The notes beneath the pieces are model-generated. The model was not told the DNA's origin, did not search any database, and saw only the letters and a list, made by a program, of their open reading frames with translations. From Hydrolagus colliei (taxonomy: Eukaryota): DNA of 64,000 nucleotides. This document shows, piece after piece, positions 3,461 to 28,279 of this stretch. Each line of letters starts with the position of its first letter. Within the stretch, counting starts at the first letter, position 1. The position numbers and the translations under genes were made by a program. The DNA lies in contig CM068748.1 of assembly GCA_035084275.1 (NCBI GenBank), positions 14,322,001-14,386,000 on the forward strand, in the 5' to 3' direction.

Positions 3461-3536
3461 GTGTAAGCTTCAAAATCCCCATTATTGATGGCTTCAATCA
3501 ATTGCTCGGTGATCTTGATGATGTCCTGCTTGCGTG
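3461..3536 (-). CDS. CAMK2G: First hub (association) domain exon (76 nt): [25 protein letters not shown](T)
   Basis: aactttag|CA CGC AAG ... TAC AC|gtaagt; canonical 76 nt. Confidence 0.97.
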
Positions 3537-6500
3537 CTAAAGTTTTTTGGGAAAAAACATACGAGAGTAACATAAGATGCCGCTCTGCAAAATGTCCATC
3601 TTGTGAACTCGGATTCAAGACACCCAAGTGCTTTCAGTGCAACAATTTATCCCATCCACAAGGGCCAAAAGAATGTTTGCTGAACAGCTCAAAGCCCATT
3701 TGTAAATAACTGTGTCCCTTTGTCAGATTGTGTGACAGAGGCTACACAATGCTATCTAGGAACACCAGAAATACAGTGAGTTAAGGCTGCAAAATACTGC
3801 CAAAGTCTATTCACCCAAATTAGACTACATCGCTCCCTCACTTGCCCACTTTAAGGCACGTCTCAAGAGGCCCATTTCTTCCACCATGCCTTCTGCCACC
3901 TTTCTACGCTCTCTGCCCTCCCTGATCCCAACCCCCGCACCCACTGCTCAAGTCCAAAAACCTGACTATCCAGCACTTTGGAACGTCCTACTGATGTGAC
4001 GTCCATCTGGCTATACAAATGTAATTTTGCATTGCATTGTGTACTTTTAAAACTGGGAAAAATATTCAAACTATATCTATCATTGGCATCAACAGCCACT
4101 TAAGTAACTGGGGGAACCTTCCCCATGTCCACTTTGTAAGTTGTATTTATTTTATATATCTATATTGAATTTTTTAGATAATAATTACAAACAAGTAATC
4201 AATTATCAGTCGCTTTCTGTGTGGAATGCCCAAAGGCACAAAGAAACCGAAACAATGCAATCTAAGACCATTCAGTAGAAAAACCAACTCACCAACATTT
4301 GCTTAAATTGCTCTCAACATTAAGGCAGGGAGGTGGGTGTTAAGAAAACAGCACTGAAGATACTAAAAACCAGTGTAGAAGGGATCTAGAAGGAAGTTAT
4401 CAGCGTTTGTGATGAAACAACACAAATACTGGAAACGTGCAATTTGCCTAAACTAAGAATCTCATCACGTCCTCCTAAGGTAGAAATATGCTACCTCCTT
4501 AAACCAGGAGCCATATGCTGCTTTCACCACTTTGACAGGGTTGCTAACCTAGGTGACTTTCACAGTGTGTTAGTGACTCTGTAAACCAGAGCACTTGGTC
4601 TGATCCTCCCTGTATGGAGTTTCAATTTTCACATTCAGTTCAGATCGGCAGCCTCGGGCGGGATTGGGCAACAAAAGAATAATGTCTTGATTCTCTCCTC
4701 CTAACCTCATAGCTTGCATGGCTATTTTGGTCCTGTTTCTATATTGAAATGTCCTTCACCTTCAGGCGTAGGGCCTTCACAATGTGCATACCAGCTACCA
4801 ACACTGTTGGTAACTGCAGTCTCCTTGGGATCTGAACCAGCCTGCCAATAGAATGTCTGAATCGAGCCAGCCCTCTATGGTGGTTTCTGTTTCTGGTCCG
4901 ATTCGTGAGCTCGGTGCGTCCGCAGTATTCCAGGATAGCACAGGACTCTGCCTGTGCTGCGGGTGACGCACAGGCAGAGTGGTTCATCGGCAGGACCTGG
5001 AAGAGCACACCAGACCCTGGGGGCAGTCATCCCACTTAACTTCTGTTAACTGTGCAAGCCAAAGCCCTAACAGGTAGGGTGGTCTTTGCTGGACAAGTGG
5101 AGGGAAGGCTTGCTGGACAGCAATCTCAATGGCAAGCTATCTAGTTTTAGCTGGTTAGACTCCCAACATTACCCCAACACACATTCTGGGGTCCCCAAGC
5201 TTTGGTTCTTGCCAACCTACGTCTAATACTTTCTGGCATTAGATAGGCAGAATGTGTCCTTTCAGGAAGAGGGTGCTCAATCCATTCCAATGTTCTATTT
5301 AACAAACAGACTTGCTCGGGATGGATTGTATTATGCATCTGACATGAAGTCATTTAATATGAAGATTCTCATAGGGAAGAAATCTACTGGTGGACATGTC
5401 TATTTGTACTGTTTGAAAGGAACACTATTGTAGACATGTCACTATTATCAGCGGCCTCCTGACATGAAAGGTGCTATACAAGTGTAGTATTGTTGTGGTT
5501 GTTGTTATCGAGAACGCAATTGCTACATGCGACTGAGAGCTCTCTCTCACTCGTTTTTCTCTCTCTCCTCTCTCTAGCTGAGTTTGTCGGGAGAAAGCTG
5601 AGAGCTAAGCTCACGTGAATTTGAGTGTAAGTGCAGGTGGGGGGGTTGGGGGGCGGGGGGTGGAAGGACCCACTGGATGTTCTGTCCAGCTAATACATGT
5701 CAGCACCGTGGTAGAATACACTACAATTTATGACTCAGTCCACCATAAGAGAACCAGAATTATGCCTCACTGACTCAACATACGATTAGCTTTCCAGTGA
5801 TATTCAAGATTGGCATAACACCTCCAGTTACTGAAGGAAGCCCAACCTTTGTGCCTGTCCCTACTGCACAGATCTCTGACCACTGAGCACATGCTGGTAG
5901 TGTACTGCAGTGGACATATTATGTGGGTCCACAATAAATTTGTACTACAAACAGACCCACACTATCCCGAGATGCACTATAGTAGGGGTCAGCCTGTAAT
6001 TATAGCAATAAATTCTATTAATCTGTCTTTATACTATAAAGAAATGTTATATATTTATATTATACAATTATATAATGTATACGGTATTTCAATAGTAATG
6101 CATTAACTCCAAATCTTTGGAAGGTAAAAAGAATCAGGATTTCTAAACTGTTGGAAATGTCACCAATAAGCCCAGTGCCTTGAGACGTCCTCTTTGCATG
6201 AAATTCGCTATATATGTGTCATTATGTTGCTGATATGTTGTTAGGTTGTATCTCTAGCCAGTGGTTTCTTTGAAAAGTACATTTTATGTAGGTTATGCCG
6301 TAAATGAAATGGGTATATATCCTATTGTACTGCATTTCAACAACACCCACACCAGCACTCTAACCGGTACTCTGCACTCTCCTGTCATGTCCGTATCACT
6401 GCCACCCTGTAACATTATCTTTCCTACCCTTTACCACAAACCGGGGAGGTGGGGAGGTTGAAAGAAGAAGTCCTAAGCATCCTTTAAATCGGTACCAACA

Positions 6501-7410: not shown

Positions 7411-7720
7411 ATAATAATAATTCATGCATTTGATATAACGCTTTTCATGTCTTCTAGACGTCTCAAAACGCTGCACAGGATATACTGCAAAGTGAATTGA
7501 CTGTATATTTGTGGGAGAAATGTGGCAGTCAATTGCACACAGCAGTTTCCCACAAACAGTCGTGGATTGAAATGACCAATTTATAATTGTTTTTTTCTTG
7601 AGGGATTATTATCAGGCATGTGGAATAAGGAAACTTACCCAAGGTTTCACCCTGCCTAGAATTGAACCCAAGTCTCTCGCTTGCAAGGCGAGTGCTCTAA
7701 CCACTGAGCTACAGGACTCC
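7411..7720 (-). mobile_element. tRNA-derived SINE with L2-type tail (internally shortened)
   Basis: Head GGAGTCCTGTAGCTCAGTGGTTAGAGCA...GGTTCAATT (A and B boxes); tail ...TGAAAAGCGTTATATCAAATGCATGAATTATTATTAT shared with many fragments in this window. Confidence 0.85.
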
Positions 7721-7986
7721 ACATGAAACTGAAGTGTTAGAAATAATATAGATAAAAAGAAACATTGGCTGTCAACATTTTCTTTTGCATAGTGAGACCA
7801 CAATATGCTTTGACAAATTAATAATATTCAATCATTATTGTTAAGATACTGTAGTCTGCTTTACAGTTAATGTTTTAGGTAGTAGTAGGTACAAAAGATT
7901 TAGTAATGATTCACTCTATCTAAATCTCTGCCAGGTTTAGATACAGAACTGAGCCAGTGCTCAGAAAACCCTTCTGCTTCACTTAC

Positions 7987-8070
7987 ACTGTGTGGGAGGA
8001 GATGCAGGTGGAAACAGCTCTGAATTATCAGAATGACTCACTGTACATGTGAGATCCACAATTTCAGTGG
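7987..8070 (-). CDS. CAMK2G: Candidate linker cassette exon (84 nt): ATEIVDLTCTVSHSDNSELFPPASPPTQ(S)
   Basis: ctgttttcttttccccccacaaatattcag| ... CAG T|gtaagt; multiple of 3; open in the required phase 1-1; sits where gamma and beta carry extra pre-hub cassette exons. Confidence 0.7.
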
Positions 8071-11000
8071 CTGAATATTTGTGGGGGGAAAAGAAAACAG
8101 GCATGAAGATATATATAGATACAGGCCCCAACAAGAACACCAGTAACAATTATGGAATTCAAGCAAATAAAATATGCTCCCATTCTACCAGTGATACCTT
8201 CTATTGAGCTGTGTGATGAAGAAATCACTGCCTACTTCTGACCTTTGACATTAAAATGTTGAAATGGATGAAAATTAAGGTTTGTACAGTGACTCCCTCC
8301 AGTTACTGGCAGGATTCCATGTTTGTGACTCAAGTCTCTCTCAAAAACTTTTGTTAATGAGTTGCCAGAAATTAGATTGCCTTGTGTTATTCTGCAGGCT
8401 CAACAATTAGCTGGGGCTTGCTAACCAAGGTAGACTGACGTCTTGGAAAAGTCAAGTTGGTGGGTTGTGATGGGAATCAAACTATGGGTAGCATTAACCA
8501 TTACTGATCAGAGACATTTTTAATACAAGAGATTCCGATAAAGAAGACTCTACATCCAATTCCAATTTATCTGTCTAGAAACGCCAATCGTACTGCCTTC
8601 CAATTATCATGTCTAGCCTTTTCTTTCATATACAGTATTTATTTCTCCTGCTAGTTTGGCTTCTCCTTGCAACAGCCCCTAACCCGAAGGGTGGCCAGTT
8701 AAAAGTGCCCCATTTGTTCTGTCTTTTGTATTTTATTACTGTTACCGCAAAACAGCAAATTCAACTTTTCTTGTCCCTTTGTTTTTTTGTGTTTTCATCA
8801 GAGGTTCACTGATGTAATGCCAGATGCATCTATTTGTTGAAGGGTTCAGAGAGCAGTGTCAGAGGTGCAGATTTTAACTGAGGGATGAATGCAGAAGTCG
8901 GCTTTTAATACATTATGTATGACTAATATCCATAAAGCTAAAACCTCACAGGTTCCTTTCACAGCAGGAACAATGAAATTACAGATTACATTTCGTGTAA
9001 CATATGATTCATGTTTTTTTTAATTTTGTGCATGTATATATTTCTATATAATCTAAATAATTTGTCTATAACCTATTGCCTATTGCTTAAACATCTGTCT
9101 ACAACAGGATCTATGTAGCATAAGGACAGAGGAATGTTAGGATTTAATGGCCACACTGATTGGTGTTGCTTAGGTTGGGACCATTAGCCTGGCCCATCTC
9201 AGCAATAGGCTACACTGTTGAATTCTCCAGCTGAGAAAACCACATTAAATAGTGTAGGGCAATGAAAAGTCACACAAGCTGTGCACAACTCACATGTGGG
9301 AGATGGGACTTTCTGTTATCCCGTATATACCACTGTCTAGAAATTCGTAACAAAGGCATGTATGAAGTAATTGTAGATGATGGAATATTCAGACCAACTC
9401 AATGTTATATACAATGAATACAACACTACACAATATTGGATTATATCAGGCCTTCCCAGTATCTGCAGCTCAGCAACTCAGGCTCGGTTGCTAAAGTACA
9501 GGAGCCGCAAGGGTTGGGGACAGGAAATTCAAACTGGAGAATGGCTCTCCAGTTTAAATACACCAAGCAAGCTAATGATGAGTGAAATATCCTTACCACC
9601 AACAGAAACACGGAAAATGTTTGTATTCCTGTGCAATAGATGATATTTTTCTTACAAATATGGCAAGATATTTTAACCATCTAATGCTATAATAGATTTT
9701 TTAAAAAAGAAAACGCCTAACATCTGCAAAGAACGAATGACTGAATCATAGTCAGTTAAAGAGGTAGGATGCGATGTCCAGAGCATGTTAAAAAGCTCTG
9801 CAGTGCAGTCATGTAAAATCCGATCTTTTCGCTTTTTATGGCCTTAATTGGAATGTACACTTGGCTGATGGAGAGAAATGCCGCAGTTATACTATTTAGT
9901 TGTTTTGCGAGCATCAAACCACTTGCTCATGCTCGTGAGTGCACATTAGGGAGGACATTTTCCTTTCTGTTGCATCTACTACAGTTATTCTACCGTGGCC
10001 TATGTACAGTAATAGATTTCATAAACTATGACCCCCCCCAAATCACATCCAGCACTGCTGACAAACAATGACAAATGTGCCTTTCTCTCTCTTGGAGAGC
10101 TACCTCAAACTAATTCCTAATGGGCACTTATCCACAACAATGCAATCTGGTACCAATTAGCAGTACATTTATAGTCTTGCTCAGTTAAGGGTATTTCATG
10201 GAACAATCAAACAATCACATTGAGGGGTGAACTTGTCTAATTAACATGTTGGGCTACCATGCTATGATGGATCCAAAGTGCTGGGCCCAGCTGCTTAGTG
10301 GAAAAAGTGGTGAAATGTTTACCATTACTGACGTCTCTCACCTTGATGACATGAGAGACGTCACTTAACCTTTCACTTTAAATCATCTCTTTAAACGTGT
10401 TCTATTGTCCTGCCAGCTTTTTGTGCAGATCTGCAGAGCTGTCTAACCTGCCTTCAGCAACAATGCTTTACAAATGCAAAGCGGAACTGCGTCAATGCAT
10501 TTGTGATGCGATCAGATTCCAATCATGACGCATTTTGTGCAATTGTTTCCTGGCCAAGAAAGAAATGATCACTGGGGCTTTGACCAGCCAGACTGCTGCA
10601 ATCAGATTTGTACATAAGTCACTAATGCACCTATTCTCTGGAATTCTTTTTCCAAATCACTTTTACCATGTGCATTCTCTTTCCCTGCCTTCATTGTATC
10701 TTCGTCCATAGTTTTGATCCACTTCCTTAAATTTCCCTATTCTTCCCAGCTCGGAGATCCCATTGCCTTGATAAAGTGGGTTGAGACGTTAATTTATGTG
10801 AAAGGCACCATGTAAACGCAAGCTGTTTCTGTAACCCAGCACAGTTGTACCTCAGAGTAATATTACCTTCATAAATTGTAAGACACAACTCATGTTTCTA
10901 GGAGCCTAATAAAACTGAAGCCTGATTTTGACAACAAATAACTGGTTATTTGGAATCAAAATTGGTTTGGTGAAGTGAAGGAGAAACTGAAAATATTTCT

Positions 11001-14000
11001 CACTCGACAACTACCCACACAGCTGTCAGAGAAGAGATCCTTCATCCTATTACCTTGAGTTGGATTTGTTATGGGGCACCAAAGGTAAAAGGGGAATACT
11101 CTTTAACTCAGTGGAAAACTTATAGTGAAAATCCATCAAGAACAGCCATTGGGCATGTATTTTTGTTTACACACTGCCTGTTCTCTGTCATGAAACTGGT
11201 TGAGATACAGAGTTCTGTCACACCTTGCTAGTAGAGAAGTGCTCAACTTAGTCAGCAATGCTATGATATCAAGACCCACTTGTACTTACATGATCTGAAT
11301 GAAATGGGTCTCACTCACATGCTCCCATAATGCAACACACTTGCGTGGTAATAACACTTGTATTCAACCAACGTCATGGAGAGAGAAAATGATCCATTCC
11401 TGTGCTGCAAGCCACCGTAAGAAGGTGATAGGCAACTTGCTCAAAGGTTTTAGGGAGACGCTGATCCATAATGGGTCACTAGCAAGTGTGCAATAGGGAC
11501 CTGGAATGGTGTTGGGCTGGTGTGGAGGGGAACCACAAGTTCACATCCTAAAGTTCCATGGTGTACCACGCGGCCTAGCAACACTACTGGTAGTTACGAG
11601 ATTACTAACAGGTGTGAAGGATAAAACTTTATGTATTTGTAGCATAGCAGATTTTAGAAAATGTAACGTAACCAGACCGTGTCTCTCATTCGATACTGTA
11701 CAATTTCCAGTCATTTACACGTGCTTTGAATTGAATTAAAACTCAATCTGGTCACAGTTAAATTTGCAAAAGAAATTAGCTTGGAAAAGGTCAATTCAAA
11801 TCTCAAGCATTAATTCCATGAATATTTGGATTACAATGCTATCTTCCAACTCTGCATGCAATCAAGTCTCTACAGACATGTACTACTTTACTAGTTAGCA
11901 CACAACACGCTAGAGTGCAGCTAAGTGGTTTGCTGCCAACTTACTGAGTGGAATCTCATGGGGTTGGTCAGTATGAACCTGCTCAGCAGTTGACTGATTC
12001 TTCATTACACTTTTACTGCCAGCATCATGGGTTGATACTGGCATTCATTGATGGCAGCATTGAGAAGAACAAACAGGGTCGTTACAAGATAGGAAACATA
12101 ATTAATTCTATTATTACTGAATATAGATGAATTCAAAAAGAATGGCATTGTGACAACTTCAATAACCTCTATTTTCCGCCGCCAGATGTACGGACATAGT
12201 AAAACAGAGATAATAATAAGCTGAATGGTTTCACATTTTCTAAATTTCAACTGACAATCCATAAATCTAAGTGCATAACACATGGAATCAACATCATTAG
12301 ATAGAATATAAATAAATCACATAAACAGTGAATAATGTTGTTAAATGGAAATGGTCTACTAAATATATTGTGTTGTGCAAGGGATCTTTAGTCACTATAC
12401 CCTAGCCTCCAGAACTTCCTGCCTCAATCGCTCTACCTTGTTCCCTCTTTATCTACCTTTAATTCCCCCTTTAAGAATTGCTTCTTTACGCATGCTTATG
12501 GTCACCTCTCCCTTGCATACTGTCCAACCCTGCCATTGTGCAGCACTTCGCGATGCTATCCTGCATGAAGGGTACTATATATACATGCTGTTGATGTTAT
12601 TTGGGATTGAAGGGTAGAACCAGTGTTCTAGTAATGAACAATCCTAAAATACAGTGTAAGGCAATATCACAGCGAGGCTCCCTCTGCATATTCATGCCAC
12701 CACAGCTTCAATATCACAGTCAGCAGACTCACTTAATAAGTTCACCAGACATGCCTGCTCTCTGCTTAATGTGGTACACAGCAAGATGGTTTCACAGTTT
12801 ATATTCGCCAACTTCCGATCAATGCTGTTATGTTGAATAAGATATTTTTGTCTCCTCCCCCTATGTAATTTATTTCTGAACTTGATAAATCTTTAGACAG
12901 TCACACTCACTGTCCGTTACTGAGTATCACCAACTGAATTATCTTTGTTCTAGGAACACACATAGTTAATTTTCTTGCTTCCTTTGTGCCAAGATCACTT
13001 CTTAACTAGTTTGGCAATCTGTTCATCTGCTAATGGCAACTCTAGAGTTACAGTGGGGGGGGGGGGGGGGGGAGGAAATTGCAGCCATCTGGAGTTCCCT
13101 GAATTACTTCAAGCTGCTTTCTTACTGATGCATCACTGCCTGATCACATTACCAAATGTGCCACAGAGTGCTAAAAGCAATTTAACATTACCTGCTGAAT
13201 TAATATTCTCTCTAGGCAAATAACTAAATGTGGGCATAATCATTTTATTTCAATCACAAGAGAGATGAGGAAGACCCTTCAGCTATTCATCCTCCCAGAA
13301 TACCCAGCCTACTATCCTGACACAAGTTTTTTTCATACAAGTCCAACATCCTGACCTGAACCACAGTTCCTGGTAACATACTAGGTTCAAATAGGTTCTA
13401 TTGCAAAAAAAAGTAATGTTGCCCATGAATCCTATTTTAATTCAGCACCTATTGGTCCCCACTATTTTCCACAAGGTTATTTCAATATTGCATGAAGGAC
13501 ACCATCCACACATTAATTTTCAAACTACACTGTTGATATCAAATTATGCTGCTGAGATTTAGCAAACTCTCATCAACACAGTAGTGTTGGTTCAAAATTG
13601 CACAATTGAATCTTCTGCAAAGTTGTAACAAGTGCAGTAGTTCTCTTGAGTAATTTACTGAACATTTGAAGCCTTACAATAACATCGTGAGTAGGGACCT
13701 CTATTGTTCCAGGTTTCATAAGTAGGCTACAATTCTGTTTATTGTCAGTCATTGTGAGATTGTAGTATTTGGACTTGTTCATTATTGCCATCAAATATCT
13801 AGGATTTATCTGCTTTGCCTTATCATGAATCTTCAAGATTGTTCCCAAGGACACTTAAGTGGGTTTGAGCAGAAATGGAAGAATTGATTTTTGACTATCT
13901 GCAAGTGTTGCTTCATTGTCCATTGCTCCCAGAGATACTTTGATGTAGTGATATCTAGAGAGGGAAACATGCTTGTGGCTGTTGCTTTTGGAGCTTTACC

Positions 14001-14311: not shown

Positions 14312-14360
14312 CTTTCACTTCTTCGTCTTCAGTTGTTGTATTGCAGCTATCAGTTGATTC
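14312..14360 (-). CDS. CAMK2G: Linker exon (49 nt): ESTDSCNTTTEDEEVK
   Basis: ctcttccttag|GAA TCA ... AAA G|gtaggg; canonical 49 nt; phase 0-1. Confidence 0.95.
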
Positions 14361-21261: not shown

Positions 21262-22545
21262 TAGGGAACGGCGATATGGGAATTTTCCGGATATGGATAT
21301 ATCGGTTGGCTCATATCGAGATATACCGAAATATCGATATTTTTAGTTTTTTCGTACTGCGCATGCGCGCGCTCATCGGTGTGCGCGCGCATTCCTGGTG
21401 CGCGCGCATTCGGGGCCTATCTTCTCAGGAGGTAAATATCATTCTCTCTCTGTGTCTCTCACTCTCTCCATCTCTGTGTTTTTCTGTCTGTGTGTCTCTC
21501 TCCCTCTCTTCTCTCTCACATCCCCCCCCCATCTCTATCTATCTGTATATTATCACATCCACCCCGTCTCTCCCCCCCCCCCGCCGTCCCTCTCTCGCAC
21601 CCCCCACCCCCGTCGTCTCTCCCCCACCACCCCCCCAGCCTTCTCTTTGTCCCTCCCCCCCAAGCCGTCTCTCTCCCCCTCCCCCCAGCCGTCTCTCTCC
21701 CCCTCTCCTCCCCCCCCCCCCGCCGTCTCTCTCCCCCTCTCCTCCCCCCCCCCCCCGCCGTCTCTCTCCCCCTCTCCTCCCCCCCCCCCACCGTCTCTCT
21801 CTCCCTCCCCCCCCAGCTGTCTCTCTCCCCCTCCCCCCAGCCGTCTCTCTCCCCCTCTCCTCCTCCCCCCGCCGTCTCTCTCTCCCTCCCCCCCCAGCCG
21901 TCTCTCTCCCCCTCCCCCCAGCCGTCTCTCTCCCCCTCCCCCCAGCCGTCTCTCTCCCCCTCTCCTCCCCCCCCCAGCCGTCTCTCTCCCCCTCTCCCCC
22001 CCCCAGCCGTCTCTCTCCCCCTCTCCCCCCCAGCCATCTCTCTCCCCCTCTTCCCCCCAGCCATCTCTCTCCCCCTCTCCCCCCAGCCATCTCTCTCCCC
22101 CTCTCCCCCCCCCCCAGCCGTCTCTCCCCCCCCCCAGCCGTCTCTCTCCCCCTCTCACCCCCCAGCCGTCTCTCTCCCCCTCTCCCACCCCCAGCCGTCC
22201 CTCTCCCCCCCCCAGCCGTCTCTCTCCCCTCTCCCCCCCCCCCCAGCCGTCTCACTCCCCCTCACCCCCCCCCCACCAAAGCCGTCTCTCTCCCCCCACC
22301 CCTTGCATACCTGTATATTGTATTCGAGGACTATGAATACAAGATGGCGGCTTTGCACCTCGGTCTGTGCATTGTGTATAGAGATGAGCATTCTGGGTCT
22401 TGCAGTTGATTGTGCTCGCATCCCGATTTTTTACCTCGATATAGCGGTTTTCGATATATCGGTATTTTTGAAATGTCTATATCGGCATATCGATATGAAA
22501 ATCATATCGGGTTTTAGCGATATACCGATATATCGCCGTTCCCTA
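21262..22545. mobile_element. Non-autonomous hAT-superfamily DNA transposon, 1284 bp
   Basis: Perfect 16-bp TIR TAGGGAACGGCGATAT (21262-21277 / 22530-22545); 8-bp TSD GTCTCCAG (21254-21261 and 22546-22553); many subterminal CGATAT/ATATCG motifs; no transposase. Confidence 0.93.
21560..22300. repeat. C-rich minisatellite inside the hAT element; unit about CAGCCGTCTCTCTCCCCCTCTCCCCCCC with variable C runs
   Basis: Directly visible tandem array with more than 20 copies of (A)GCC(G/A)TCTCTCTCCCCCT; boundaries approximate. Confidence 0.95.
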
Positions 22546-23519: not shown

Positions 23520-23564
23520 CTTAATGCCATCTGAGGGATTATGGACTACAGTTGTTTGTGGCTC
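23520..23564 (-). CDS. CAMK2G: Variable linker cassette exon (45 nt): EPQTTVVHNPSDGIK
   Basis: cttattcag|GAG CCA ... ATT AAG|gtaccc; canonical 45 nt. Confidence 0.95.
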
Positions 23565-28246: not shown

Positions 28247-28279
28247 CATTAAATGAACACTGGAACTGGACTTCCTTTT
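28247..28279 (-). CDS. CAMK2G: Nuclear-localisation cassette exon (33 nt): KRKSSSSVHLM
   Basis: ctgttcag|AAA AGG AAG TCC AGT TCC AGT GTT CAT TTA ATG|gtgagg; forms KKRK with the last K of the previous exon. Confidence 0.95.

Follow-up and report, generated by a model that had tools for sequence, protein, structure and literature searches.

An optional pre-hub exon of chimaera CAMK2G with a conserved PxSP motif and probable kinship to the beta-M exons

Linker cassettes of described CaMKII genes

The CaMKII linker is alternatively spliced and predicted to be disordered and the hub that follows it builds 12- to 16-mers, according to the available text of PMC12474881, which sees sensitivity as tuned by the linker part adjoining the regulatory segment. 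Closest to the exon described here (exon B) are the beta-M exons of CAMK2B (v7a-c; human exons 19-21), which the accessible portion of PMC11106974 presents as muscle-specific, MBNL1-dependent and marking a neuromuscular-junction isoform; in the same models, and in the same portion, inclusion of gamma exon 19 shifts and is regulated in muscle. As to the origin of these exons, the part of PMC5882894 at hand calls three beta exons unique to beta, whereas that of 10.1101/721589 calls the beta-M exons homologous to gamma exon 19. The latter excerpt also reports that the Ca2+/CaM EC50 of human beta stays in the range of the linker-less form (14-31 nM) when all three beta-M exons are included.

Exon B resembles the beta-M exons in occupying the last pre-hub slot, in its phase (1-1), in its Pro/Ser/Thr-rich tail and in an acidic position 6 followed by hydrophobic residues, and its donor region is similar to that in the beta gene of the same genome. 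It differs from them in that it belongs to a gamma gene, is present as a single copy, is shorter (28 vs 37-43 residues), lacks RRGS and has an invariant Cys and His-x-Asp-Asn that are not found in beta-M. We do not count exon B among the beta-M family. Our literature search found no paper on pre-hub exons in cartilaginous-fish CAMK2G. Tombes 2003 reportedly surveys variable exons in all four genes, which may reduce the novelty.

Two optional exons ahead of the hub in chimaera CAMK2G

The window, i.e. the whole 64,000-nt stretch of Hydrolagus colliei DNA that was analysed, holds one of the four CaMKII genes in this genome. In a tree of shared exons, built with gamma and beta references only, the window gene groups with Callorhinchus, shark and tetrapod gamma (support 87/84), the gene on contig C44 falls beside beta of bat and herring (94/90), and that on C1 pairs with C19. 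Together with RefSeq CAMK2G names, the tree upholds the gamma assignment that had been made in a sequence-only reading of this DNA. Within this CaMKII gene, exon B is flanked by the core acidic linker exon on its upstream side and by the first hub exon on its downstream side. The features concerned are as follows, X1 being a run from a related organism that we guess to be RNA.

7987..8070, minus strand: exon B, an 84-nt cassette exon, phase 1-1, 28 codons, with a conserved PxSP near its 3' end
8071..8100, minus strand: exon B acceptor, with a pyrimidine tract (8100-8083), a short A-rich spacer and CAG
7981..7986, minus strand: exon B donor, GTAAGT, the exonic -1 base being T; no X1 difference listed
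11945..12037, minus strand: exon A, the other cassette exon, 93 nt long and upstream of exon B, phase 1-1, with a weak acceptor and a GTAAGT donor
14312..14360, minus strand: acidic core linker exon (human exon 18 equivalent), the upstream partner, with spliced ends in X1
3461..3536, minus strand: first hub-domain exon (human exon 22 equivalent), the downstream partner
28247..28279, minus strand: nuclear-localisation exon (human exon 15 / v3N equivalent), another linker exon
23520..23564, minus strand: another linker exon (human exon 17 equivalent)
7864..8424, no strand assigned: stretch around exon B alignable in X1, including both flanking intron parts

Exon B is real, and its splice sites are middling, with a pyrimidine tract that is set back and a T at donor position -1. 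The sequence-only reading was correct in its coordinates, the length of 84 nt, the CAG acceptor, the T|GTAAGT donor, phase 1-1, the stop-free frame and the peptide, and joining exon B between 14360-14312 and 3536-3461 preserves the frame and yields that same peptide. To call its acceptor strong, however, was an overstatement: pyrimidines make up 17 of the 18 bases in the tract (8100-8083), which lies about 10 nt away from the AG, and a crude acceptor score amounts to 0.4 bits as compared with 5-6 for the beta exons. When a strict filter (YAG, pyrimidine-rich upstream sequence, GTAAGT, frame kept, no stop) was run over the 10,775-nt intron, the sense strand gave two candidates, both of them real exons, and the antisense strand none. 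Applied to 300 first-order Markov simulations, the same filter found 0.06 candidates on average and never two, a chance estimate to be taken as a rough guide since the filter was drawn up with exon B already in view. Searching the own genome with the exon B peptide retrieved a single match, exon B itself. We also considered 'CAG-T-GTAAGT' as a recursive splice site and dropped it, since the frame does not survive a 1-nt exon and the Gln in question is replaced by Leu in one shark variant.

The second real exon, exon A, was not part of the sequence-only reading and came to light through 31 extra residues ahead of exon B in Callorhinchus models; 30 of its 31 residues are those of Callorhinchus model P0005. 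It is exon A, not exon B, that occupies the first slot after the core exon, and all four A/B splice combinations (4/4) keep the frame open. A 40-codon exon B query matched four of five candidates, all of them Callorhinchus milii CAMK2G models (93% identical), and exon B shares 25/27 residues with the Callorhinchus models of the XP_042192829-37 series. The exon is already in RefSeq CAMK2G models from Callorhinchus and seven shark assemblies. As an exon, exon B is ordinary: CaMKII linkers consist of such cassettes and databases have it modelled.

Among the matches listed, 34 cartilaginous-fish proteins carry a pre-hub insert, which comprises A and B in 15, B alone in 14 and A alone in five, so that exon B is found in 29 of these 34, from eight assemblies distinguished by the lengths of their contigs; the models with B alone are, among the same matches, from sharks only. 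Callorhinchus accounts for six insert-bearing models (five with both exons, one with exon A alone), and P0015, an aberrant Callorhinchus model, was left out of the isoform counts. For the direct junction 14312->8070 that had been proposed, this means that none of the six Callorhinchus insert models uses it, whereas 14 shark models do contain exon B alone. All of these are computational RefSeq predictions on which inclusion of exon B rests, and going by them exon B would almost certainly be part of some transcripts. Skipping is seen in the five models with exon A alone and as a skip junction in X1, where a contig that ends its exon at 14312 runs on, by inspection, into the start of the 3536 exon; hence a form without A and B exists. 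Among the X1 contig ends listed there is no inclusion junction for exon B or exon A, both of which occur in unspliced contigs; this is no sign that the exons are silent, as 16 loose ends and 10 pieces lie outside that listing. A further run, X2, is probably the source DNA itself and does not enter the counts.

X1 differs from the window at two of 84 exon B positions vs 19 of 218 in the flanks (Fisher p 0.07) and at one of 93 exon A positions vs 19 of 273 (p 0.03). Both differences in exon B are non-synonymous, none is synonymous, and the residues become those of the Callorhinchus proteins, which means that X1 is not independent of the Callorhinchus protein match. The alignable flanks of the two cassettes span window positions 11749-12114 and 7864-8424, and the intron between them is mostly uncovered. 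At the peptide level, exon B comes in seven distinct variants including that of the window, with 15 of 27 positions invariant. PxSP is kept in all seven while its neighbouring residues change, which suggests that the putative proline-directed site proposed earlier is conserved; also invariant are the Cys and His-x-Asp-Asn. The pattern I-x-D-L-x-x-T-V, on which the sequence-only reading had built, is not conserved: sharks have S-V/L-E-L and only the L is invariant.

Elsewhere in the window, very high-copy repeats that are probably SINE-like occupy 7480-7724, 2640-2700 and about 5150-5500 (summed contig depth 1e4-1e6), one of them ~260 nt downstream of the exon B donor. Positions 21519-22261 form a G/A-rich low-complexity tract with several open frames on the minus strand, likely a simple repeat.

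Relatives in the paralogs and in bony vertebrates

The pre-hub introns of the paralogous genes in this genome (G000) contain the exons listed below; those of beta, gamma and delta share the same slot and the same phase.

L016:8608-8721 and 7886-7996, minus strand: two beta-M-type exons with RRGS in CAMK2B (contig C44)
L017:2889-2960, minus strand: 72-nt exon (A') upstream of beta-M, resembling the herring beta insert; the bat beta model is without it
L028:4635-4736, plus strand: delta candidate exon in the CAMK2D pre-hub intron (contig C1), 102 nt, phase 1-1, stop-free

In CAMK2B the 72-nt exon thus shares its intron with both beta-M exons, which contain RRGS and measure 114 and 111 nt. The delta candidate, top of seven in its intron, has a good acceptor and an AGT|GTAAGT donor like that of exon B, and its likeness ranks 3/428 to exon B and 2/428 to the second gamma exon of bony vertebrates. 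A database search with it returned no match (0/1 candidate, 0 among representatives), both being weak negatives, and the 376-nt alpha pre-hub intron gave no candidate exon. CAMK2B has also kept its nuclear-localisation exon (L018:1406-1444, minus strand, C44), an exon reported for fish and whale shark in the available part of PMC5882894.

Kinship with the beta-M repeats was ranked over 264 kb and 428 candidate exons, or 423 after taking out five self-matching beta candidates, the decoys being mostly intron pseudo-exons. With a bat plus herring beta-M query, exon B ranks first of 423, as it does with bat repeats only or those of the own genome; taken separately, its residues 2-13 rank 3/423 and its last 10 residues 1/423. 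The group score of gamma-B vs beta-M stands at z 4.3 against shuffles, and single shark exon B variants score z 0.6-2.9, below the chimaera exon. At the DNA level, a donor-anchored test against 136 other GTAAGT sites places beta B2 first, the delta candidate third and beta B1 seventh, rank 2 going to an unrelated pyrimidine-rich site, and gamma B compared with the delta candidate gives z 4.0 over codon-shuffled DNA. Anchoring the DNA comparison at the 5' end instead gives weak ranks (637 and 1230 of 10,066). Exons A and B are unlike each other (z -1.2), and exon B is single copy with no near-identical tandem.

Resemblance to beta-M, as claimed before, is above chance by rank (1/423) and by group score (z 4.3), but hhalign of gamma-B vs beta-M is not significant (probability 0.24%, E 0.16), nor is any of all 21 group pairs, and RRGS is missing. 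The RRGS/RRSS motif is present in 5/5 beta repeats and 0/4 gamma-B peptides; PxS/TP occurs in 2/5 beta-M repeats and is absent from the delta candidate. Pro/Ser-rich composition contributes to the score, because the beta A' exon nearly equals exon B on the whole-exon test (8.0 vs 8.3), its N-terminal test giving rank 149; at the hub, the exon B tail has four Pro in its last eight residues. To our minds, these sequence comparisons suggest that exon B quite probably shares ancestry with the beta-M exons and the CAMK2D look-alike, and that the beta-M link drawn by the sequence-only reading was probably right in ancestry and wrong in its details.

In bony vertebrates, CAMK2G models from coelacanth, amphibians, reptiles and marsupials contain two pre-hub inserts that are used singly or together among the matches listed. 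The mammalian 38-aa exon is part of the first insert group and, although human CAMK2G exon 19 (38 aa) is like exon B an optional pre-hub gamma exon of phase 1-1, it shows no sequence likeness to it (z -2.4, rank 189/428) and fits exon A better (z 2.1, rank 16); shark A vs coelacanth A gives z 4.0. It is not the counterpart of exon B, and correspondence to exon A is more likely on these scores. By the protein models, it is the second insert (43-45 aa) that sits in the exon B slot, directly pre-hub. This second exon is like exon B in following an A-type exon and in being used alone or with A, yet it is longer, has no PxSP and is of marginal similarity (z 1.7, p about 0.05 (0.053), rank 30/428). 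A recognisable copy of the 43-45-aa insert is present in a dolphin model, and the insert is absent from the human exon list in the accessible part of 10.1101/721589.

These data bear on the strongest alternative, namely that exon B arose independently in the gamma lineage and owes its likeness to phase, position and Pro/Ser-rich composition; it would then have as its orthologue either the second pre-hub exon (43-45 aa) of CAMK2G in coelacanth and tetrapods or no exon at all. The non-significant hhalign result, the lack of RRGS and the near-equal score of beta A' would agree with this, as would a bony-vertebrate exon in the same slot with similar first few residues. However, each end of exon B by itself resembles beta-M (ranks 3 and 1 of 423) and the bony-vertebrate second exon is less similar to it than beta-M is, so that we regard an independent origin as rather unlikely. 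Moreover, exon B could be at once an orthologue of the second exon of bony vertebrates and a paralogue of beta-M.

Returning to shared ancestry, we tentatively propose a wider scheme for which doubts slightly prevail: a pre-hub module of two exons may go back to the ancestral vertebrate CaMKII gene and predate the genome duplications, in which case beta-M would be no beta invention. Of the second exon of this module the chimaera would then retain two copies in beta, one in gamma and one in delta, the last being the unannotated 102-nt exon, and human gamma exon 19 would stem from the first exon, lost in mammalian beta. The contribution of this locus is evolutionary and consists of the module of two exons together with a possible exon in delta. 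Between uniqueness to beta (PMC5882894) and homology to gamma exon 19 (10.1101/721589), as the available texts have it, the chimaera genes suggest a third answer, a module older than the four paralogs.

A predicted phospho or docking tag beside the hub

On balance, we favour a reading of exon B as a frame-preserving CAMK2G exon, the second of two optional pre-hub exons, which is conserved between chimaera and sharks, likely derives from the same ancestral exon as beta-M and, if spliced in, would provide a predicted disordered PxSP phospho/docking tag. Inclusion would expose E-L-F-x-P-x-S-P-P-T together with the invariant Cys and His-x-Asp-Asn beside the hub; these motifs may recruit a partner or accept a proline-directed phosphate, whereupon the location of the kinase would change while the ease of its switching-on by Ca2+/CaM would be left unaltered. 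We take PxS/TP to be an ERK-type consensus and PxxP the core of SH3 sites, and no basic residue flanks the PxSP of exon B. Whether inclusion is confined to certain tissues and presents as many as 12 copies of the motif set per holoenzyme, relocating the kinase and not retuning its Ca2+/CaM activation, strikes us as a close call that falls just on the doubtful side. An AlphaFold model from a 25-sequence alignment was uninformative (mean pLDDT 38, kinase included).

Alternatively, exon B could be a real cassette that acts on activation: a longer linker would move the acidic core exon farther from the hub, with an altered Ca2+/CaM sensitivity or a holoenzyme of different compactness as the result. 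In alpha and delta constructs, sensitivity does change with linker length and with the position of charges, going by the available text of PMC12474881, and exon B brings four acidic and no basic residues. The same text, however, attributes the effect to the segment-proximal linker, and a plain spacer needs no 15 invariant residues. Furthermore, beta variants with 0 to 217 linker residues have EC50 values of 14-31 nM, data that stem from human beta and not from gamma, and alpha-41 equals alpha-30, so far as the published text could be accessed. Given these human beta data in the accessible part of 10.1101/721589, lengthening of the linker, which the sequence-only reading had put forward, is improbable as the main effect, and we consider an action on activation unlikely.

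Less probable still, indeed very unlikely, is a scenario where exon B persists chiefly for a splicing-regulatory role at the RNA level, or as an exon of rare use, and its peptide is of little function. While the X1 contig ends listed hold no inclusion junction, the flanking intron is alignable too and both X1 differences change the peptide, this sits poorly with length, frame and 15 residues being kept from chimaeras to sharks and with the 29 models that include exon B. Least likely of all is that exon B gives a SUMO-interaction motif (I-V-D-L-T, which presumably fits the SIM consensus) or a modification or metal site built on Cys/His: the motif is present in the chimaera sequence and Cys, His and Asp are invariant, but motif positions one and three are altered in sharks.

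As for the favoured tag, beta (RRGS plus Pro tail) and shark gamma (PxSP, no RRGS) may serve as natural variants that separate the motifs. Near exon B, YGCY occurs three times upstream and not downstream, an uninformative count. Downstream of exon A there is a single GCATG, at a distance of 86 nt.
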